64,000 bases of DNA from Chloroflexota bacterium (GTDB lineage: Bacteria > Chloroflexota > Dehalococcoidia > Lucifugimonadales > UBA2985): assembly GCA_027622595.1 (NCBI GenBank), contig JAQBZZ010000001.1:8181-72180 (forward strand). Reading direction: 5' to 3'. Positions 366-46,342 of this stretch are shown here, piece by piece. The notes under the pieces were generated by a model. The model ran no database searches. It had not been told where the DNA came from and worked only from the letters and a program-made list of their open reading frames with translations. The translations under genes were made by a program, and so were the position numbers. The stretch's first letter is position 1. The number at the start of each line of letters is the position of its first letter.

Positions 366-1133
366 CTATTCCACCTCTCTATCCACACGAACAATCTGGC
401 TGGCCCTGCCCGTAGCTTCGTCTATGTCCACCATTACGGAGCCGAACGTGACCGCCCCGCTGGCCACCGCGAGTCTCCGTGGGGTCTGGTTGAGGAAACG
501 TTCAAGCACGTCCTCTATGGTACTGCCTATGACGGAGTGCCACGGCCCCACCATTCCAAGGTCGCTCACGTAGCCAGTCCCCTTGAGTAGGAGACTCGTA
601 TCCACAGTCCCAACGTGAGTGTGAGTCCCGACAAGTGCGCTGACCCGGCCGTCCAGGTACCAGCCCATCGCCACCTTCTCCGACGTGGCCTCGGCATGAA
701 AGTCCACCAGGATCATTCGGTGGCTATCACCCAACTCCGCTAGCAGTGCGTCCATAGCGCGGAAGGGATCATCGTAGTTGCCCACAAACACCCGGCCTAT
801 CAGACTGACCACCACGACTCCCTTCACCTCGACATACCCCTTTCCGGGCGTCGTCGAAGGATAGTTCAGGGGTCTAAGTATGGGCAGTCCCGTGTCCAGG
901 TGAGGAATTATCTCCTTCTGGTCCCAGATATGGTTCCCGGAGGTGATGACGTCCACGCCGGAGTCAAACAACTCCTGCGCAGTATCCAGCGTAAGACCAA
1001 AGCCAGCGGCCGCGTTCTCACCGTTGGCCACCACAAGGTCTATACCGTACTCATCGCGTAGGCCAGGAAGCAAGGACTCTACAGCCCTCCTTCCAGGCCT
1101 ACCGATTACATCACCAATCATCAAGACCCGCAA
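366..1133 (-). CDS. ymdB: YmdB-family metallophosphoesterase (2',3'-cyclic-nucleotide 2'-phosphodiesterase-like)
   Basis: Track ORF 366..1148. Motifs GDVIGRPGR, NGENAAAGFG, GNHIWD and HAEATSEK are present. It lies directly downstream of rny, as in the Bacillus rny-ymdB pair. I set the start to TTG 1133 (GGGAGA about 8 nt upstream, giving MRVLMIGD); 1148 is the longest alternative. Confidence 0.85.
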   Translation of the reverse strand: MRVLMIGDVIGRPGRRAVESLLPGLRDEYGIDLVVANGENAAAGFGLTLDTAQELFDSGVDVITSGNHIWDQKEIIPHLDTGLPILRPLNYPSTTPGKGYVEVKGVVVVSLIGRVFVGNYDDPFRAMDALLAELGDSHRMILVDFHAEATSEKVAMGWYLDGRVSALVGTHTHVGTVDTSLLLKGTGYVSDLGMVGPWHSVIGSTIEDVLERFLNQTPRRLAVASGAVTFGSVMVDIDEATGRASQIVRVDREVE

Positions 1134-1237
1134 ATCACCGTCTCCCAACGTGTGGCCTATGCAGTCAGGCCACTACAACGCGTTCCAGCGCCTGTATGTT
1201 TCCGCAAACTCTGAAAAACGTTGTTTCCAGTGATCTC

Positions 1238-2764
1238 CTAGCGGGCGAACTCCACCGACCGGGTCTCACGGATTACCGTGACCTTGATCAGGCCAGGGTA
1301 TACCAGAGTCTCCTCAATCTTCTTTACCACGTCCCTTGCCAGCTTGGAGGACGTCACATCGTCAACCTGATCGGACTTGACCAGAATACGCACCTCCCGG
1401 CCGGCCTGAATGGCGTAGCACTTGTCCACACCGGGGAAGCTCAGCGCCACCTCTTCCAGTGCCTCCAGTCGCTTGGCGTAGTGCTCCAAGCTGTCTCTGC
1501 GAGACCCTGGGCGGGCAGCACTGATGGCGTCCGCGGCAGCCACTATGAAAGCCTCCACCGACCCGCGTTCCTCGTCGTGGTGCTCCATGATGGCCCGCTC
1601 TATCTCAGGCGCTATTCCATACCTGCGGGCCACCTCAGCGCCGATCTCTGCATGGGTCCCCTCCACCTCATGGGTCAGGGCTTTGCCGATGTCGTGCAGC
1701 AACCCTCCGACCTTGGCCACCTCTACGTTTGCGCCTATCTCCGCGGCAATCATGCCAGACAGGATGGATACCTGCACGCTGTGCTGAAGGATATTCTCCC
1801 CGTAGCTGTAGCGGTACTTCAGCCGGCCAAACAGCCGGACCAGCTCCGGGTTCAGGCCTCGCACCTTTGCATCGAAAACGGCCTTCTCGCCCTCCTCCCG
1901 GATGTTCTCCTCGACCTCCAGGCGGGTCTTCTCCACCACCTCTTCTATCCGGGCCGGGTGCACCCTGCCGTCTGAAATGAGCTTGGTGATAGCCAGTCGT
2001 GCCACCTCCCGCCGCACAGGGTCAAAGCAGGAAATGGTAACGGCCTCAGGGGTATCATCTATGATGAGGTCGACCCCCGTCGCGGCCTCGATCGCGCGAA
2101 TGTTCCGTCCCTCGCGCCCTATGAGACGACCCTTCATCTCATCGTTGGGAAGTGGGATTACCTTAACCGTGTGCTCAGAGACTACGTCGGAAGCTAAACG
2201 ATGGATGGACAGAGTCAGCACCTTGCGGGCATTCTGGTCCGCGTCTTCCCTGGCAAGCTGCTCAACATCCCTATAGCGGCGGGCCACCTCGTACTGAATC
2301 TCGTCTTCGGCCTTCTTCATGAGAATGTCCTTGGCGTCGTTGACAGAGAGGGCCGAGAGGTCCTCAAGGACCGCCAACTCCTGGCTTTTCATCGCCTCAA
2401 GCTGAGCGTGCCCTTCCTCCAACGCCTTCTCCCTGATTGCCTGGCTCTTTTCCCTTGTGTCCAGGTTATCCGAGCGCCGTTCTATGTTCTCCTCACGATT
2501 GGCCAACCTCCGCTCCTGGCTCTGCAACTCCGAGCGCCGTTCCCTCAGGTCCGCCTCCGCCGAGGTGCGCATACTCAACGCCTCTTCCTTGGCCTCCAAG
2601 AGAGCCCTCTTCCGCTGTTCCTCAGCCTCCGCCACTATGCGAGAGGCTTCCTCTCCCGCATTCTTCACCCGTTTACCAAATATGCTAGCTCTGAAAAAGA
2701 ACCCGGTTGCTCCCCCTATTCCTAGGGCGACCAGGACGGCGAGGACAATTATCAATGCATCCAC
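1238..2764 (-). CDS. rny: Ribonuclease Y
   Basis: 508 aa with an N-terminal TM helix, a coiled-coil, a KH domain ([12 protein letters not shown]) and an HD domain (LLHDIGKA). GTG start with AAGGAGGG upstream. Confidence 0.95.
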
Positions 2765-2926
2765 TGTCCTTCACCCTCCTTTCTATCCAGGCTAATCAGC
2801 CCGGAAAATCCGTGCCCTCTCTTGCATCAAGGGCATCGTTTGATGTTAATGCCAGACACGAGGAGTGTCAAGGACGACCAGGCCTTTACGCGGCCCTTCC
2901 AGCACCCGCTTTCAGCATCCACACCA

Positions 2927-3117
2927 CTCATGGTGAGCTTATCGAAGGGCGTGAGCAGAAAATAAACTTGTCATTCTGAACGCAGTGAAGAATCTAAGAC
3001 ATTTGCCGCATACAACATACGCTTCAGATGCTTCGCCGAGTTTATCATGAGCGGAGCCGAAGGTCTCAGCATGACATCCCACTCTCCGCTCATGGTGAGC
3101 CTGCCGAAGCGCGTGAG
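2927..3117. repeat. Copy (a) of the dispersed modular intergenic repeat family
   Basis: Contains GTCATTCTGAACGCAGTGAAGAATCTAAGAC...GCCGCATACAACATAC...CTCATGGTGAGCCTGCCGAA. The first 51 nt from 2970 match the copy at 5610 in 48 of 51 positions (hand count). Confidence 0.8.
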
Positions 3118-3124
3118 ATGGCCC

Positions 3125-3484
3125 TTAAGTCTCGTTCTCCCCCACAAAACATTCGGAGCAGCGGCACAGCTTTCTCAGCAGGTCAAATGGGTAGATACCG
3201 GAATCGTGGGTATCGCTCCACAGAAACTGCACGGCGTACCGCCCTATCTGCATCCAGTCTATTGCCTGAACATCCTCCCTCACATCCTCCTCCGCCACCC
3301 TACGCCGACCCGTCATCTCCTCAACGCACCCGGCGCAGCAGCAATGGCCTCTCAGATACCTGTGGGGATAATAGCCGGAATGTCCATCGTCCCACAGAAT
3401 GTGGACTCCATCATCCTCTAGATTCACCTCATTAACTGCCAATACTTTTCCCCCTTTTTGTAATCCCCCCACCCCACTCAACAC
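3125..3484 (-). CDS. DUF971 family protein (gamma-butyrobetaine hydroxylase-like N-terminal domain)
   Basis: 119 aa. The pattern HILWDDGHSGYYPHRYLRGHCCCAGC...YAVQFLWSDTHDSGIYPFDLLR is typical of DUF971. GTG start. Confidence 0.7.
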   Translation of the reverse strand: MLSGVGGLQKGGKVLAVNEVNLEDDGVHILWDDGHSGYYPHRYLRGHCCCAGCVEEMTGRRRVAEEDVREDVQAIDWMQIGRYAVQFLWSDTHDSGIYPFDLLRKLCRCSECFVGENET

Positions 3485-3608
3485 TAATCGCCAGCTGATG
3501 ATGAGACCCTCGGCTCCGCTCAGGACATGCTTGTCAAATGACTAGCGGGGAAAATCCCACTTGCCAGACCAGAATAGCAGCTTATTATGGGTGCAGGGCG
3601 TGCCCTGG

Positions 3609-3953
3609 CTACCCCATGACACTCAGGCGACCGCCCCCCAACACATGCAGGTGTAAATGAGGGACCTCCTGCCCTGAGTCCGACCCCTGGTTGATCACCA
3701 GCCGGTATCCCGATTCCGCCAGACCCTCGCGCTGGGCCATCTCCCTTGCCACAAGAACCATATGCCCCAGCAAAGCCTCCCTGTCTTGGTTAAAAGACGT
3801 GAGGTACGTCACATGCTCAGAGGGAATCACCAGGAGATGGGTGGGTGCCTTGGGGTTGATGTCCCGTATCACAAAGGCCAGGTCGTCGCTGTACAGAAGC
3901 TCGCCGGGTATCTCCCCCAGTCCGATTTTGCAAAAGACGCAGTCCTCAGCCAT
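3609..3953 (-). CDS. HIT family (histidine triad) nucleotide hydrolase
   Basis: CVFCKI start and the HLHLHVLGG histidine triad. I set the start to ATG 3953 (MAEDCVFCKI). The longer track start at 3986 lies inside a repeat element. Confidence 0.85.
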   Translation of the reverse strand: MAEDCVFCKIGLGEIPGELLYSDDLAFVIRDINPKAPTHLLVIPSEHVTYLTSFNQDREALLGHMVLVAREMAQREGLAESGYRLVINQGSDSGQEVPHLHLHVLGGGRLSVMG

Positions 3954-3980
3954 ATCTTGTGTGTGCCCTTCCTGCCCACC

Positions 3981-4036
3981 GCGCATGGTGAACCCGTCAA
4001 AGCATCGTCGTTACGAGCGAGTCCCCGAGCGCAGCA
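3981..4036. repeat. Copy (b) of the modular repeat family (short)
   Basis: GCATCGTCGTTACGAGCGAGTCCCCGAGCGCAGC closely matches the spacer GCATCGTCGTTGCGAGCGAGTTCCCGAGCAGC at 5766-5797. Confidence 0.6.
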
Positions 4037-4061
4037 ACCTAGTGGGGTGGCTGAGCCTCTA

Positions 4062-4298
4062 CTACACGCTCATCGACAGATAGGTCGTCGTCCGCTGTAT
4101 CCCGCTGATGGTGTGGATGCCCCCCGTCACCAACTCCCCGATGCTGTTCAGGTTTTCCGCCTCAATCACAGCCACAATGTCGTACTCCCCAGTCACAGCG
4201 TCGGCTTCCTTGACCCCTTCCATCTGTTGAAGGACCCTGAGCACATCCTTGGTCTTACCAACCGCCGTCTCGATTAACACATAAGCCTTTGTCGCCAC
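4062..4298 (-). CDS. Stand-alone Lrp/AsnC-type ligand-binding (RAM) domain protein
   Basis: 78 aa. AYVLIETAVGKTKDVLRVLQQMEGVKEADAVTGEYDIVAVIEAENLNSIGELV matches the AsnC_trans_reg domain pattern. No HTH domain is present. Confidence 0.7.
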   Translation of the reverse strand: MATKAYVLIETAVGKTKDVLRVLQQMEGVKEADAVTGEYDIVAVIEAENLNSIGELVTGGIHTISGIQRTTTYLSMSV

Positions 4299-4500
4299 GA
4301 TGCTGCCTCCTTACCGTTCCAGGTGCTGCTTCATTCAAAGCCAGCCCCCACCAGAAGAGAGACTCCTCCACCGACTACGACCATTCTAGAGTTAGCCCAT
4401 ACCAGTGTCAATTGCGGCGAAACTTTGTGTAAGTGCGACTTGCAGTCGCGGCACACACATGCCGGTACAATCTTCCGGTTGAAATAAAAGGAGGCGATGA

Positions 4501-4731
4501 ATGCTCGACAGACAGGTTGTTCAAGAGTTCTTGGAGTCCCAGATGGAGGATATTGGTCTGACAGTCCCAGCGGACATTGACCAGGCGGCATTTGTCGAAG
4601 TCTTTTGCCAGTATACGGAGGACGATTACTACGAATGGCTAAAGGACAACTTCAAGTCCTTCTTCGATGAGGTGGATTGGGAGTGGGTCAGGGAAAAGGT
4701 TCGTTCAGTTGGAAATCAGGAAACCACGTAG
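4501..4731 (+). CDS. Hypothetical small acidic protein
   Basis: 76-aa ORF with a strong SD (AAAGGAGG) 7 nt upstream of the ATG. I recognised no domain. Confidence 0.5.
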   Translation: MLDRQVVQEFLESQMEDIGLTVPADIDQAAFVEVFCQYTEDDYYEWLKDNFKSFFDEVDWEWVREKVRSVGNQETT

Positions 4732-4795
4732 CCTGATGGTACATTAGCTCGAAGTAATTTAGACAAATTATAAAGCGGGTGCTTTTCCTCAAGAT

Positions 4796-5161
4796 TTAGC
4801 GTGAAAGCCGATATGAAACATCTACGAGTAAATTGACTACCTCATTTACTTGCTGTGTGTTATCGAGAAACATTCGTGCCTGGAATTGGCGGCCAAATCC
4901 ACCAGTCGTCGGACTTCTTAGCTCAATACCTGAAGCAGAGTAATCACTAAGTTCCTCTGGCTCCCCCAGAAACCAAACTTCTATACGATTCATTCGTTTC
5001 CTATGATTTACGTATGCAAATCGCCTTTTGCCTTCCTCGAAAAAACCGCACCATCTTTCTGATTGGGATGTTCTTAAACTCGGAATCCTCCTTGCCAATA
5101 CAGAGAGGAGGGCGTCGCAAAGTTCCTGGCTTTCGGAACAGCTTTGATCGTGGTCTGACAT
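4796..5161 (-). CDS. Hypothetical protein, possibly DUF5655-like
   Basis: 121-aa ORF in a lower-GC stretch. The tail RFAYVNHRKRMNRIEVWF...GGFGRQFQARMFLDNTQQVNEVVNLLVDVSYRL resembles DUF5655-type domains. The assignment is weak. Confidence 0.45.
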   Translation of the reverse strand: MSDHDQSCSESQELCDALLSVLARRIPSLRTSQSERWCGFFEEGKRRFAYVNHRKRMNRIEVWFLGEPEELSDYSASGIELRSPTTGGFGRQFQARMFLDNTQQVNEVVNLLVDVSYRLSR

Positions 5162-5245
5162 ACAACCTTCTAAGTCGAGAACTTCACCATAGCCTACTGC
5201 GCGCCCATTACCGCGTCAACAGGGTATCTCCCACTTACAAAAAAC

Positions 5246-5614
5246 TCACAAGAAAACCGGCCTCGGCGGCGGCCATATACCCTCAAAGCTGCATTTGAAC
5301 CCTGAACTGTGGGCATCGAAAACCACGGGCGTGAGTATCTTTGCAGTAGCGCCGTCTTCACACTCGACCCGCAGACCGCTCTTCTCAATCGATGGGAAAT
5401 CAAAATCAAAGGGAGTACCTGCAATGGGTATAAACTCCCCCTTCCAACTCTTCATACCGCTATCGGTGACAGTCACCCACCCGAGCATACGGCATCTCCC
5501 GACCGCATTGCCGTCCCTGTCCTTTATGGTGATGTTTTCGTCGTATGCGAGCATGGTGGCACCTATTGTATCATCCGACTCCATCCAGTCGAATGAAACG
5601 GGGTACATTGTCAT
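5246..5614 (-). CDS. Hypothetical protein
   Basis: 122-aa ORF with no recognisable domain. Its ATG (5614-5612) lies inside the terminal GTCATTCTGA of the repeat element at 5610. Confidence 0.4.
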   Translation of the reverse strand: MTMYPVSFDWMESDDTIGATMLAYDENITIKDRDGNAVGRCRMLGWVTVTDSGMKSWKGEFIPIAGTPFDFDFPSIEKSGLRVECEDGATAKILTPVVFDAHSSGFKCSFEGIWPPPRPVFL

Positions 5615-5895
5615 TCTGAACGCAATGAAGAATCTAAGACCTGTGCCGCATACAACATACCTCCCGGTGCTTCGCGGAGTTTATCCTGAGCGTAGTCGAA
5701 GGGCGCAGCATGACAACCTTCCGCTCATGGTGAGCCTGTCGAACCATCATCCTGAGCCTGTCGGAGCATCGTCGTTGCGAGCGAGTTCCCGAGCAGCCTG
5801 TCCTGAGCGTAGTCGAAGGGCTCAGCATGCCAACCTTCCGCTCATGGTGAGCCTGTCGAACCATCATCCTGAGCTTGTCGAAGGACAGGAGCGGA
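5610..5895. repeat. Copy (c) of the modular repeat family, a composite with an internal 74-bp direct repeat
   Basis: It starts like the copy at 2970. It then carries two 74-bp units (5684-5757 and 5801-5874) identical in 72 of 74 positions, with a period of 117 bp. Confidence 0.85.
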
Positions 5896-7783: not shown

Positions 7784-9139
7784 CTAGCCACCAAACTCCC
7801 ACTCCAGCAGGCGATGTGCCTCTTTCATCGCCTCCTCAACCCGCCGCGGGCTGGTGCCTCCCGGCACGTCGCGGCTGGCGATGGAGGACTCCACGCTGAT
7901 GGCATATATATCCTCATCAAAGCGAGGCGAGAGTTTTTTGTAATCTTCCAGACTCAACTCCGCCAGACCCTTACCCTGGGAAGCGGCATGACGTACCAAC
8001 TCAGCGACGATGCCATGTGCGCTGCGGAAGGACTCGCCCTTGCTCACAAGGTAATCGGCAAGGTCGGTTGCCAAAATGTTGCTGTCCCGGGCGGCCTCAC
8101 GGGCGCGCTCGACGTTGACCGTCAGGGTGCTCATCATGCCTGCAAACACCTCCAGGGTGCTCAGAAGAGTATCCACAGTGTCGAAGAAACCCTCTTTGTC
8201 TTCCTGTAGGTCCCGGTTGTAGGTGAGGGGCAGGCCCTTGAGCAGTGTGAGGATGCCGACCAGGTGGCCGTATACCCGGCCTGTCTTGCCGCGGGCCAGC
8301 TCGGCGAAGTCCGGGTTGCGCTTCTGGGGCATTATGCTGCTGCCGGTGGTGTATGAGTCGTCCAGTCGGATGAAGCCGAACTCCTGCGACGACCACAGCA
8401 CCGTCTCATCTGCCAGACGTGAGAGGTGCATCATGCAGACGGCCGCCGCGGCGTGATACTCCACCAGGAAGTCCCTGTCGGCGACGGCGTCCATGCTGTT
8501 CTTGCTTATCCCGCCGAACCCCAGTTCTCGGGCGACGAACTCGCGGTCTATGGGGTAGGGAACACCCGCCAGAGCGCCGCTGCCAAGGGGAAGGACATTG
8601 ACTCGATGCAGGCAGTCCTGGAACCGCTCCCGGTCTCGCTGAAGCATGTGGAAGTAGGCCAGCAGATGATGGGAGAGAAGGACGGGTTGGGCCCTTTGCA
8701 GATGGGTGTAGCCAGGGATGACCACTCCTGGATTAACCTCGGCGGTGGCGAGGAGGGCTGACTGGAGTGCCTTGATGTTTTTCTGGGTGTCCCCTATGGC
8801 CTCCTTGCAGTAGAGCCGCATATCGGTGGCTACCTGGTCGTTGCGGGAACGGCCCGTGTGGAGCTTCCCGGCCACATCTCCTATCTTCTCGAAGAGACGG
8901 GCCTCGATGTTCATATGGAGGTCTTCCAACTCGTCTTTCCAGGGAAAGGAGCCATCTTCTATCTCCTGTCGGATGCTGCTCAGGCCCATGCCAATGCTCT
9001 CGGCTTCCCTGTCCGTAATGATGCCCTGTTTCGCCAGCATACGGACATGTGCTATCGACCCGGCCACGTCCTGTCTGTACAGGCGTCGGTCATAGTGTAT
9101 GGAGGCGGTGTATTTTGTAATCTTCTTTTCCTGGGACAT
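7784..9139 (-). CDS. argH: Argininosuccinate lyase
   Basis: 451 aa. TGRSRNDQV, GYTHLQRAQP and GSSIMPQKRNPD are fumarate-lyase/ASL signatures. Confidence 0.95.
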   Translation of the reverse strand: MSQEKKITKYTASIHYDRRLYRQDVAGSIAHVRMLAKQGIITDREAESIGMGLSSIRQEIEDGSFPWKDELEDLHMNIEARLFEKIGDVAGKLHTGRSRNDQVATDMRLYCKEAIGDTQKNIKALQSALLATAEVNPGVVIPGYTHLQRAQPVLLSHHLLAYFHMLQRDRERFQDCLHRVNVLPLGSGALAGVPYPIDREFVARELGFGGISKNSMDAVADRDFLVEYHAAAAVCMMHLSRLADETVLWSSQEFGFIRLDDSYTTGSSIMPQKRNPDFAELARGKTGRVYGHLVGILTLLKGLPLTYNRDLQEDKEGFFDTVDTLLSTLEVFAGMMSTLTVNVERAREAARDSNILATDLADYLVSKGESFRSAHGIVAELVRHAASQGKGLAELSLEDYKKLSPRFDEDIYAISVESSIASRDVPGGTSPRRVEEAMKEAHRLLEWEFGG

Positions 9140-43699: not shown

Positions 43700-44527
43700 T
43701 CAGTTCTTCAATAGCATCCCGGGCTGACACTGGCGGCAGTAGTTGGTGAGCCTGTGGTTCGCGCCGATGGTGGTAATGTTTCCGCCGCAGTTGGGGCACG
43801 GTGATCCCCCTTTGCCGTGCACTGCAAGGAAGTCCCTGACCTTCAGATGTATATCGTCGCCTGTGCGCTCCCGCAGGACGGCGATGGCGTGGTGCAGCAC
43901 GTTGGGAATTGCCAGGTGCAAACTGCCAAGTTCCTCTTCGGAGAGGGCAGAGCGCTTCTTGAACGGGAAGATACCGGCTGCAAAGAGGACCTCGTCCGCG
44001 TAGGCATTGCCGATGCCGGCGAGAAACTGCCCCCGGGCGAGCACCCCTTTGATCTCCCCTTGAAAACGGCGCAGTCCCTGTTTGAACTCTGGAAACGCAG
44101 GGTACTGGTCAAGGACATCCGGCCCCTGTTCGCCAAGGCGTGGCACCTCTTCCAGTTGCGAGGACTCAATGTAGTAGGCCATGCCCATCTGGGTCTCGTC
44201 CAGGTACCGCAGCTCCTTCCCGTTGGACAATGACAGTCGAAAGGATGTCCTCTTGACCAGCCGTGTAGACGGCGGGCAGAGCTGGATTGCCCCGGTGAGC
44301 ATTGGGTTCACCAACAGCATTCGCTCTGCCGAGAGTTCCATGAGGAGGAATTTGCCCCTGCGGCTGAAGCCAAGGAAGGAGCGTCCAGCTACGTCCTGGA
44401 CAAAATCGATGGGAGTAAGGACACGCAACTCAAGAGGTTTTAACACTTGGGCCTGCTCGACAAGCAGACCCTTGGCCCGTTGGTTTAGGAAGTCCTTTAT
44501 GACCTCCAGGTCGGGGGCTTCAGGCAT
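43700..44527 (-). CDS. mutM: Formamidopyrimidine-DNA glycosylase (Fpg/Nei family)
   Basis: MPEAPDLE N-terminus (catalytic Pro2/Glu3), H2TH region and a C-terminal zinc finger CPNCGG...CRQCQ. Confidence 0.9.
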   Translation of the reverse strand: MPEAPDLEVIKDFLNQRAKGLLVEQAQVLKPLELRVLTPIDFVQDVAGRSFLGFSRRGKFLLMELSAERMLLVNPMLTGAIQLCPPSTRLVKRTSFRLSLSNGKELRYLDETQMGMAYYIESSQLEEVPRLGEQGPDVLDQYPAFPEFKQGLRRFQGEIKGVLARGQFLAGIGNAYADEVLFAAGIFPFKKRSALSEEELGSLHLAIPNVLHHAIAVLRERTGDDIHLKVRDFLAVHGKGGSPCPNCGGNITTIGANHRLTNYCRQCQPGMLLKN

Positions 44528-44554
44528 TGTCCAGTTCCAAATTCCGTCTACGTC

Positions 44555-45388
44555 CTAGCTCTTTGGCAATACCAGGTATACAAAGCTAACTATGTCATCG
44601 AAACCACCACGAGCATGATAAGAACGAGGAGACCGTAGGAAAATCTTGACCTCCATACTGGCTCCTATATCTTGTTCACCGACTTGCCACCTTAAGGTCG
44701 TGTCTTTGGTATATTCGACTATCGTATGAAAACTGGGCCATATTTGCAGCTGCGATTCGCAGGTATCTCCCCTTGGGTCCCACGCCTTTACAACAAATGT
44801 GACTTCATCACCTGGGCGCAATACCCTGCCTGTATTAATATAGCTTTCGGAACTTGTGGCCAAATTGCCTAAACTATCTTTTACGTATTCGATTCGGGGG
44901 AAATACTCATCAGAAGGAGTTTTTTGGCTACGGTAGAACGTGATCTTGCTTCTTATCTCTCCACTTATCCCGCTAATCAACTCTGCCTGATAAGGGAATA
45001 GCTCTCTTCTGTGTGCGTCCGGGTTGCGGAAGTCCTCCAGCTTATCAAGATAGACTTCCATAGTCTTCCAGTCCCCAAAGCATGGCTCAAACAGTTGCCA
45101 GTTCTTTTTAAGAATGGTTGGGATATCATAGAAATCGGCGTAGTAGAGGAGGCGTTCCTCCACTCCACTTCCCCGGAGACGTCTTCGCTCTTCTTCCCTT
45201 CGCTCATTCCACCTGTCAACACGTTCTGGTGTAACCCCACACTTAGCTACCCAGGAATCCCCGAATTGTTCTCGCAGTACTTCTTCAATGAAGTCACGGA
45301 GTACATTCTCTACGGACTTTAGGGCATCATTAGCGTCTGTCACAGTAGCTCGCAATCCCAGCCCATCTCTATTTAACCAAGGGAGCAC
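44555..45388 (-). CDS. Swt1-like HEPN domain protein with an uncharacterised beta-rich C-terminal domain
   Basis: 277 aa. It has an N-terminal helical domain with LEDFRNPDAHRRE (an Rx4H HEPN motif in RNxxxH form). The gene is visibly lower in GC than its flanks: sampled lines gave 43-47% against about 62% in mutM. Confidence 0.6.
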   Translation of the reverse strand: MLPWLNRDGLGLRATVTDANDALKSVENVLRDFIEEVLREQFGDSWVAKCGVTPERVDRWNERREEERRRLRGSGVEERLLYYADFYDIPTILKKNWQLFEPCFGDWKTMEVYLDKLEDFRNPDAHRRELFPYQAELISGISGEIRSKITFYRSQKTPSDEYFPRIEYVKDSLGNLATSSESYINTGRVLRPGDEVTFVVKAWDPRGDTCESQLQIWPSFHTIVEYTKDTTLRWQVGEQDIGASMEVKIFLRSPRSYHARGGFDDIVSFVYLVLPKS

Positions 45389-45448
45389 GGCCTTTGCAAA
45401 AGCCTTTCGTGTGCATGCTGCGTAAAAATGCGGCGGAGGAGCCGCGAC

Positions 45449-46342
45449 TCAGTTCTGGCTGAACTGGTCACCCAGCTGGTCAAGGAAGTCCTGCACCTCT
45501 GTGGAGAGTTCCGGGTCCTCCTCATCTCTGTCCTCCTCCATCCTCTTGACCCTTTCCTCGTACTGGCGTTCCAGTTGCTCCACAAGGCCCCTTACCTCCG
45601 GGTTGCGGTTCATGGCTGAGGATATTTCCTCATTCTGCTGACTGGCCCGCATCTTGACCCTCTCCAGGTCCATGTCAAAGCCGTACAGCTGGCACAGCAG
45701 TTCCAGCAGGCGTAGACGGCCGGCGTGGTCCACATCCATCTGTGCATACTGGGGTAGGTGGGCTATCAGTCCCATTGTCTCAATACCCAGCTTTGCCGCT
45801 TCCTGCGAAATCAGGGAGGCGATGCTGGTTGGCCCCTCATAGCTGCTGGAATGTACGCCGAAGCTCTTCACACGCTTCAGAGTCTCTTCCCCGGTGGCTG
45901 ACCCGGTTACAAGTATTGGCCGCGTATGTGGTACCAGGTCATACATGGCTCCAAGAAGACAGTACCGTGTGACTCCAAACTTCTCAAGGAGCTTCGTGAT
46001 GGATTGAACGTAGGCTTCACCGTTCAGGTGGGGTTCCAGCAGATGTAGGAATATAAAATCGTTGTCCCCCGGCCCACGGGCGTAGCTGACGTTTACGGTG
46101 GGCACAGTCACCTGACGCTGCCCTTCAATGGTGTGGATGGTGGGACGATACCGGGTGAAATCGAAGAAGATTCCCGGCCTTGCGATCTTGGCCATGTCCT
46201 GAGCCTGGAAGTGGCGCTCCAGGCTGCGGAATGTGAGTCTGCCAACGCTTCCAACGTCCACCCAGGGGCGGAGAGTGGCGATGGCATGGGGGCTCCTCAA
46301 TTCCGGTATGGGTTCTTCTATCTCAAAGGCTCCGAATTTCAT
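45449..46342 (-). CDS. PAC2 family protein (proteasome assembly chaperone 2-like)
   Basis: 297 aa. The overall pattern (LRSPHAIATLRPWVDVGSVG..., HLLEPHLNGEAY, an acidic C-terminal tail) resembles actinobacterial PAC2/DUF75 proteins. Confidence 0.65.
   Translation of the reverse strand: MKFGAFEIEEPIPELRSPHAIATLRPWVDVGSVGRLTFRSLERHFQAQDMAKIARPGIFFDFTRYRPTIHTIEGQRQVTVPTVNVSYARGPGDNDFIFLHLLEPHLNGEAYVQSITKLLEKFGVTRYCLLGAMYDLVPHTRPILVTGSATGEETLKRVKSFGVHSSSYEGPTSIASLISQEAAKLGIETMGLIAHLPQYAQMDVDHAGRLRLLELLCQLYGFDMDLERVKMRASQQNEEISSAMNRNPEVRGLVEQLERQYEERVKRMEEDRDEEDPELSTEVQDFLDQLGDQFSQN

Follow-up and report, generated by a model that had tools for sequence, protein, structure and literature searches.

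What does a solitary gene of low guanine-plus-cytosine (GC) content, lying between mutM and a PAC2-family gene in a Chloroflexota genome, encode, and is its product more likely to defend the cell or to serve its ordinary metabolism? The gene lies on contig JAQBZZ010000001.1 of assembly GCA_027622595.1, from which a stretch of 64,000 nt (positions 8,181 to 72,180, hereafter the window, whose numbering is used throughout) was analyzed. An earlier note, made from the sequence alone, had placed an open reading frame (ORF) of 277 codons with a GTG start at 44555–45388 on the minus strand, exactly where we find it, and had proposed a stand-alone HEPN ribonuclease (RNase) with a C-terminal domain of no recognizable family. 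Based on the analyses below, the protein very probably joins a Swt1-like HEPN domain to a C-terminal immunoglobulin (Ig)-like module, an architecture here called HEPN-Ig. By analogy to HepS, Tha and the Schlafen-Ig proteins, it may act as a single-protein sensor-effector RNase with a role in defence, a reading to which we give a probability of roughly 55%. This reading draws on four properties: an invariant RNase effector, a variable and portable Ig-like module, the absence of a partner, and a sparse, horizontal distribution.

The HEPN domain occupies residues ~21–156 of the 277-residue numbering (44920–45328, minus strand) and is a predicted helical bundle. The Pfam profile PF18731 (HEPN_Swt1) matched residues 22–131 with 33.5 bits, above its curated gathering cut-off of 27.5 (E = 5.4e-8), and most homologues carry a precomputed match to the same family. 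The motif DFRNPDAHRRE, on which the earlier assignment to Swt1-like HEPN domains had been based, contains the Rx4H motif R121-N-P-D-A-H126-R-R128 (RNPDAHRR, 45005–45028, minus strand), which is predicted to be catalytic. R121, H126 and R128 were invariant across 40 diverse homologues of 45–81% identity, so the assignment stands also on conservation. In the structure predicted by AlphaFold2 (AF2) from the 40-homologue alignment, with a mean predicted local distance difference test score (pLDDT) of 88.7, helices extend over residues 13–156, mostly with pLDDT >90, in agreement with the helical N-terminal half expected previously. Three PDC-M34B models of PADLOC also matched residues 17–136 (E = 1.6e-16 to 1.7e-5). 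From these sequence features we infer that the N-terminal domain works as a Swt1-type HEPN endoribonuclease and is catalytically competent.

The C-terminal part, which had been described as beta-rich, was all-beta in the AF2 model of the full protein, with nine strands between residues 165 and 273. Modeled alone (115 residues), the domain reached a pLDDT of 97.0 and a predicted template modeling score (pTM) of 0.89, again with nine strands. Foldseek searches of the PDB with this model returned almost exclusively Ig, FN3, PKD or cadherin-type domains among the top 50 matches, including FGFR, PECAM-1, RhoGDI, the C-terminal domain of GH158 and an archaeal PKD domain; the best reached a query-based template modeling score (TMq) of at most 0.56 and a probability of up to 1.00, with E-values no better than 8e-4. 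A search of a viral structure library gave likewise generic Ig-like matches. At the sequence level, neither single-sequence nor profile searches with the domain found a match in Pfam, NCBIfam, PHROGs or the PDB sequences; for residues 160–277, Pfam gave none at E ≤ 1, and the profile search of the PDB sequences gave chance matches only. The earlier statement that the domain has no recognizable family thus holds for these four sequence libraries, and its fold can now be assigned: residues ~164–277 (44558–44899, minus strand) are, as modeled by AF2 and compared by Foldseek, an Ig-like beta-sandwich without a specific known relative. Membership of the PKD, Big or He_PIG sequence families was considered and rejected, there being no Pfam match; the A-x-DP-x-G-x-x-L-x-Y motif of the module may resemble He_PIG/cadherin-like repeats, a likeness to which Pfam lends no support.

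The two domains differ markedly in how strongly they are conserved. The mean column entropy was 1.13 bits for the HEPN domain, 1.94 bits for the Ig-like module, and 2.56 bits for residues 206–250, a hypervariable stretch (44639–44773, minus strand) in which insertions and deletions also cluster and which is a candidate specificity surface. The module nevertheless has conserved motifs of its own, namely FPRIE-x3-DSLGN, LRPGD, A-x-DP, RS-x-R-x-YHA, DD and F-x-Y-x-VLP. These also appear in proteins of other architectures. When residues 158–277 alone were compared by phmmer with 1.84 billion representative proteins (E ≤ 1e-3), 281 matches were obtained, most of them canonical, with the module at residues ~145–265 of a 260–275-aa protein, and two giant repeat proteins matched residues 20–73 only. 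In P0146 (514 aa), a singleton encoded on a 266-kb contig, the module lies at residues 184–301 behind a TIR domain (E = 4.2e-15), and its N-terminal domain is 60–74% identical to the TIR domain of many TIR-STAND-TPR proteins. In six further proteins (P0158, P0170, P0180, P0201, P0217 and P0245; E = 1.5e-13 to 2e-8) the module is preceded by transmembrane helices and a helical region without an Rx4H motif, while in P0227 a membrane anchor precedes a complete HEPN-Ig protein and in P0205 two tandem copies of the module follow such an anchor. None of the TIR, transmembrane and tandem-module architectures had a PADLOC match. The signature residues FPRIE..DS.GN, L.PGD, DP.G, R..H, DD and V.Y.V.P were kept in all fusions; because they persist outside HEPN fusions, they serve the module's own function rather than the HEPN active site. 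The earlier suggestion that the protein may be regulated by its C-terminal domain gains indirect support, since the module is fused to other effector types and is the variable half of the protein.

The HEPN-Ig family is large and widely scattered. A word-indexed search found at least 588 clusters at E ≤ 1e-3. Among the 120 clusters listed, proteins were 246–310 aa long (mostly ~260–275 aa) and covered 89–96% of the query; hence both domains travel together. A few members bear the name 'Swt1 family HEPN domain-containing protein' at NCBI. A pattern scan of one genome per species (185,579 species), whose counts are a lower bound, confirmed at least 63 loci. Carriers were found in Verrucomicrobiota, Planctomycetota (Brocadia, Scalinduaceae), Pseudomonadota, Bacteroidota, Actinomycetota, Chloroflexota, Cyanobacteriota, Armatimonadota, Gemmatimonadota, Bacillota and other bacteria, as well as in two Methanocellales archaea; cultured species with a homologue include Piscinibacter caeni, Fodinibius sediminis, Hymenobacter segetis and Pandoraea captiosa. 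Phyla were intermixed in the maximum-likelihood tree, where Scalinduaceae grouped with Myxococcota (branch lengths 0.13–0.19) and Brocadia with Anaerolineaceae, and full-length homologues of 28–35% identity were present on seven large actinobacterial plasmids. Gene GC was more than 3 points below that of the flanks at 43 of the 61 loci compared (L014 and L019–L080), with a median difference of -6.4 and an extreme of -27.6 points. The HEPN-Ig family as a whole is therefore foreign-looking in composition. Separately, in five metagenome-assembled genomes (MAGs) of Cryomorphaceae/Flavobacteriales (L068–L071 and L076) the gene is syntenic and its GC lies within 1.5 points of that of the flanks; in the Cryomorphaceae lineage it seems to have been inherited vertically for a long time.

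The earlier note had seen no antitoxin, MNT protein or other partner beside the gene. This was borne out at the locus and extends to the family. ORFs called within 5 kb at 59 loci and clustered yielded no neighbour family present in more than two unrelated loci, apart from those of the five mutually syntenic Cryomorphaceae. Among the 150 proteins encoded by the two nearest ORFs per side at 39 loci, no Pfam family was recurrent, the commonest being HTH_3 with three members, and no NTP_transf_2 family recurs among the neighbours of the family. A HEPN-MNT (type VII) toxin-antitoxin system was accordingly rejected for the window, where the neighbours are mutM and PAC2 and no MNT gene is adjacent. 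An antisense ORF at 45011–45322 (plus strand), considered as a hidden partner, had no PADLOC match, nor did any neighbour in the window, and the only Rfam match near the gene was a chance one to CcsR1 (17 bits against a cut-off of 65). PADLOC matches among the 150 neighbours comprised MADS components, a prokaryotic Argonaute (pAgo) with Aga-TIR, a type IIG restriction-modification system, AriA, PsyrA and SoFic. Other contexts included transposases, a 1226-aa SIR2_2 protein (L088:4034–7714) and an NYN RNase (L085:6282–6938), the latter two being candidate defence genes, and a cluster of five tRNA genes (Met, Val, Leu, Arg, Val) directly upstream, 40 nt 5' of a member of the window's clade (L089:37–484). 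Clusters of tRNA genes are a classic integration hot spot. Overall, by raw count, a minority of copies adjoin defence or mobile genes.

Several partner-less RNases with comparable properties have been characterized. HepS, encoded by the Salmonella Gifsy-1 prophage, is a solo HEPN anticodon nuclease that is made constitutively and remains inactive until a phage structural protein, the tail-tip protein J, binds and opens it (PMC13043305). Like HEPN-Ig it is a single-gene HEPN protein without a partner, with the motif Rx4-6H; unlike HEPN-Ig, which has a separate Ig-like module and was not found on phages, it is prophage-encoded, has a single domain and senses through its tetramer, and profile searches of the PDB sequences detected no similarity between the two. 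Tha, from Staphylococcus aureus prophages, is another HEPN RNase, switched on by a phage minor tail protein (PMC11087260). It resembles HEPN-Ig in its size of ~300 aa, in combining a HEPN RNase with a second, uncharacterized region, and in having no antitoxin during defence, but its HEPN domain is C-terminal, so that the domain order is opposite, the rest of Tha is disordered by prediction or unassigned rather than Ig-like, and there is a prophage-encoded inhibitor, Ith. Closest in layout is pSlfn5 (RorSlfn5), in which an Ig-like sensor binds a tail-assembly chaperone and domain swaps place specificity in that sensor (PMC13056530). Both proteins are products of a single gene with an N-terminal RNase and a C-terminal Ig-like beta-sandwich, in which sequence divergence is concentrated. 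The effector of pSlfn5 is, however, a hexameric Schlafen nuclease, and the likeness to HEPN-Ig is one of layout. With the Swt1-like HEPN family itself (PF18731; Abi2/Swt1 clade of Anantharaman et al. 2013), HEPN-Ig shares the all-helical N-terminal domain and the Rx4H motif, and like the bacterial members in that survey it is predicted to be active (PMC3710099). The architectures in the part of the survey drawn on here are fusions to PIN, AAA+ (DUF499), helicase/restriction endonuclease, transmembrane helices, aegerolysin and others, with no Ig-like module among them (PMC3710099). In eukaryotic Swt1, an inactive HEPN dyad is fused to PIN. The PDC-M34B models of PADLOC span 147–192 positions and cover the HEPN domain only, leaving the Ig-like module outside, and our literature search found no publication on PDC-M34. 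The HEPN domain family is known and the protein already bears a generic name at NCBI, and the HEPN plus Ig-like architecture is undescribed in the literature that we found.

If HEPN-Ig is a sensor-effector RNase, it would be a two-domain cytoplasmic protein made constitutively, at a low level, and in an inactive state. The Ig-like module, through the hypervariable strands at residues 206–250, would bind a trigger, most plausibly a protein of a phage or other invader. Binding would then lift an inhibition, or drive a HEPN-HEPN pairing that juxtaposes two Rx4H motifs, and the activated RNase would cut cellular or invader RNA (tRNA, rRNA or mRNA), arresting growth or infection as in abortive infection. 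That the protein cleaves RNA, that its Ig-like module is a sensor, what the trigger is and that the outcome is defence are all deduced here from sequence, structure prediction and analogy. A wider proposal, to which we would give somewhat less than even odds, is that the module is an unrecognized, dedicated and portable immune-receptor domain of the prokaryotic cytoplasm, used on at least three kinds of effector (HEPN RNases, TIR NADases and membrane-spanning modules), in which residues 206–250 would confer specificity and the invariant Asp/Arg/His cluster would signal.

A number of observations weigh against a defence role. No member of the family was present in 50,697 INPHARED phage genomes or in the IMG/VR contigs, and most loci, including that of the window, are surrounded by housekeeping genes instead of a defence island. 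The synteny and matching GC of the Cryomorphaceae copies fit a stable cellular role as well as they fit defence. The PADLOC comparison that the earlier note had proposed for its candidate defence RNase gave matches to the HEPN-only PDC-M34B models, yet no model of a full-length defence protein matched; PDC-M34 moreover appears to be multi-gene, and no other component was found here. Within the Ig-like module, the polar residues D171, D194, D204, R255, H258 and D264/D265 are near-invariant and may belong to a fixed site for a ligand or metal in place of a diversifying recognition surface. The full-length AF2 model has a pTM of only 0.57 and the orientation of its two domains is uncertain, and the literature search turned up no paper on the HEPN plus Ig-like architecture and no experimental study of any member.

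For the maximal ORF of 277 codons, the previously given spacings (27 nt to mutM, 60 nt to PAC2) hold. Translation, however, probably begins at the GTG at 45343 (V16), which gives a protein of 262 aa encoded at 44555–45343 (minus strand; TAG stop at 44557–44555) and an upstream gap to PAC2 of 105 nt. This follows from three lines of evidence: the database gene call (P0002) has 262 aa at 100% identity; all homologues in the alignment of 40 begin at the position equivalent to this GTG; and the orthologue on the metagenomic contig L086 retains the same GTG, with an in-frame stop three codons 5' of it. The 15-codon extension of the maximal ORF (45344–45388, minus strand), whose frame is closed in L086 and which has no counterpart in homologues, is probably an untranslated 5' leader or promoter region. 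The ribosome-binding site of the gene is weak.

The low GC that the earlier note had estimated from sampled lines was upheld by calculation. The gene has 47.1% GC, compared with 56.4% for the genome (1.67 Mb) and 56.3% for the window; among 834-bp windows of the genome, just 0.39% reach so low a value (z = -3.0), and GC at third codon positions (GC3) is 46.8% against 68.5–72.5% in mutM, PAC2, sodN and the CoA-transferase gene. The value of about 62% previously given for mutM was slightly high, the measured one being 58.6%, and the HEPN-Ig gene is still far lower. The lowest-GC stretch of the window lies elsewhere, at 4600–5650 (46.6% over the 834 bp from 4601); it holds two small ORFs on the minus strand, 4796–5161 (121 aa) and 5246–5614 (122 aa), and may be another accessory islet.

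Both flanking genes are native. Downstream of the HEPN-Ig gene lies mutM, encoding a formamidopyrimidine-DNA glycosylase (43700–44527, minus strand; Pfam Fapy_DNA_glyco, H2TH and zf-FPG; GC3 72.5%), and upstream the PAC2-family gene (45449–46342, minus strand; Pfam PAC2, 9e-38), which was kept in all 12 relatives searched, with 64–83% identity within the family. A consensus scan revealed a terminator-like hairpin, GCGGC-TCCTCC-GCCGC followed by ATTTTT, just past the PAC2 stop (45430–45445, minus strand), which suggests that the HEPN-Ig gene is not read through from PAC2. No terminator was detected by the scan in the 27-nt spacer between HEPN-Ig and mutM (44528–44554, minus strand), and these two genes are likely to be co-transcribed. 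With a hairpin after PAC2 and no terminator before mutM, the insert probably heads the mutM transcription unit.

The proposal of a horizontal origin was supported. The HEPN-Ig gene was absent from 40 of 40 relatives (two from the genus of this genome, 22 from its family and 16 from its order), an empty site with mutM beside PAC2 was found in two other genera of the family (G007 and G008, with gaps of 213 and 99 nt), and phyla are mixed in the tree. G001, of the same genus, has neither the HEPN-Ig gene nor mutM, and there ffh adjoins PAC2. The metagenomic contigs L086 and L087, which come from other runs, carry the PAC2 end, a 163-aa 2Fe-2S/YHS gene, the HEPN-Ig gene, a spacer of 27 nt and mutM, and because two independent contigs have this junction it is not an assembly artefact. 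The spot 3' of PAC2 is variable in general (window 44528–45448 compared with L086:148–783, L004:1402–1497 and L003:1183–1497). The orthologue in L086/L087 is 81% identical to that of the window, and homology at the DNA level (82.5%) begins at ~45377, 34 nt upstream of the HEPN-Ig start. Between the window and L086 the rate of synonymous substitution (dS) was 0.55 and the ratio of nonsynonymous to synonymous rates (dN/dS) was 0.20, with 0.085 in the HEPN domain and 0.27 in the Ig-like module; for the first 114 codons of mutM, dS was 0.99 and dN/dS 0.08. Since the same site is occupied in the sister lineage at a dS of 0.55, the insertion, which would have fallen between the PAC2 terminator and mutM, predates the split of the two lineages, and the purifying selection on the orthologues indicates that the HEPN-Ig gene is functional. 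A recent horizontal transfer is ruled out by this same-site orthologue together with the family-wide low GC. Gene GC is 47–48% in both the window and the sister orthologue; such steadiness over a dS of 0.55, combined with low GC throughout the family, suggests either continual transfer or selection for low GC. No target-site duplication, repeats or terminal inverted repeats were found at the borders of the insert, nor were displaced copies of gene ends seen beside it. A 21-nt imperfect direct repeat (44476–44496 and 45472–45492, 81% identical) lies inside the coding sequences of mutM and PAC2 and was judged to be due to chance, and an integron attC site was discarded as the 27-nt 3' spacer leaves no room for it.

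The adjacency to mutM bears directly on the best-surviving rival, a non-immune cellular RNase of RNA turnover or stress in which the Ig-like module would be a fixed oligomerization or docking domain, perhaps tied through the mutM operon to oxidative damage. The HEPN-Ig gene lies upstream of mutM on the same strand, at 20–27 nt, in three lineages whose HEPN-Ig proteins are 52–81% identical (window 43700–45343; L086:818–1975 and L087:810–1862; L083:7001–8634). In L083 the order is dnaG-rpoD, HEPN-Ig, 20 nt and mutM, with HEPN-Ig 52% and mutM 60% identical to those of the window. The gene upstream of HEPN-Ig differs in each mutM-linked lineage, being PAC2, the 2Fe-2S/YHS gene or rpoD. The window's clade has seven members, resolved in the tree as (window, L086), L083 and (L089, L014, L082/L088), so that mutM-linked members stand on both sides of its deepest split and make up three of its six distinct contexts. 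This recurrent adjacency, the missing terminator between the two genes, the stable syntenic retention in Cryomorphaceae, the strong purifying selection, the mostly housekeeping neighbours and the invariant polar residues of the Ig-like module all favour a cellular role. Yet a single ancestral insertion upstream of mutM and a later relocation are, on the tree topology, as parsimonious as two independent insertions and can explain the linkage; mutM was near the HEPN-Ig gene at none of the ~90 loci outside the window's clade; and a metagenome scan for the clade recovered only the general clade (43–58% identity), with no further mutM-linked loci. The 40 relatives that lack the gene, among them the mutM-bearing G007 and G008, indicate that it is dispensable and uncoupled from mutM, and a distribution as sparse as that found in the pattern scan, with clear transfer between phyla, and the re-use of the module beside TIR and membrane modules, which are typical of conflict systems, also speak against a cellular RNase. 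A functional tie of HEPN-Ig to mutM is thus unlikely, and we regard a non-immune cellular function as improbable, if the most serious competitor of the sensor-effector reading. As a separate observation, contig C45 of the same assembly (5374 bp; 771–5372) carries dnaG-rpoD followed by a partial mutM, 57% identical to that of the window, in a synteny like that of L083; together with C3:8007–11384 this makes a second dnaG-rpoD locus, which could be a paralogous locus, a second strain or a contaminant. The stated contamination of the MAG is 4.9%.

A poorer fit is a toxin of an addiction-like module that would persist selfishly, its antidote being an antisense or leader RNA or its own Ig-like domain. 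HEPN domains are common toxins of toxin-antitoxin systems, as is also stated in the part of the survey cited above (PMC3710099), the gene forms a single-gene islet of persistently foreign composition, homologues reside on large plasmids, and the copy at this site has persisted over a dS of 0.55. Against this, the flanks contain no conserved non-coding sequence, no repeat and no Rfam match and differ wholly between loci, and intergenic spacers are as short as 20–40 nt; the gene is also easily lost, with none of the 40 relatives retaining it, which is unexpected for an effective addiction module. We therefore consider such a toxin quite improbable. That the gene is a decaying or inactive foreign remnant that is merely tolerated, as its atypical codon composition (GC3 47% against ~70%), GTG start and weak ribosome-binding site might suggest, is very hard to sustain, given its intact frame, the retention of all invariant family residues, the same GTG start in L086, and a selection (dN/dS 0.20, and 0.085 in the HEPN domain) that largely refutes it.

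The sensor-effector reading, if correct, bears on a field in which partner-less RNases that sense phage proteins (HepS, Tha and Schlafen-Ig) have only just been characterized, and in which the coupling of recognition to activation is still an open question. HEPN-Ig offers a two-domain protein of ~260 aa with a high-confidence model and an invariant active site, so that the idea of a modular sensor can be tested by domain swaps. A specialist may not be surprised by such a protein, yet the family is large, compact and readily testable. Should the Ig-like module prove to be an immune receptor, the HEPN-Ig family, with at least 588 clusters in bacteria and archaea, would amount to a new and widespread single-protein defence, and would give a compact scaffold on which to study the step from Ig-type recognition to nuclease activation; should the function be non-immune, HEPN-Ig would nonetheless represent a new class of regulated RNase in bacteria. 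For the streamlined marine Chloroflexota, the locus would mean that their genomes carry single-gene conflict modules inside housekeeping operons, where predictors of defence that rely on islands miss them.

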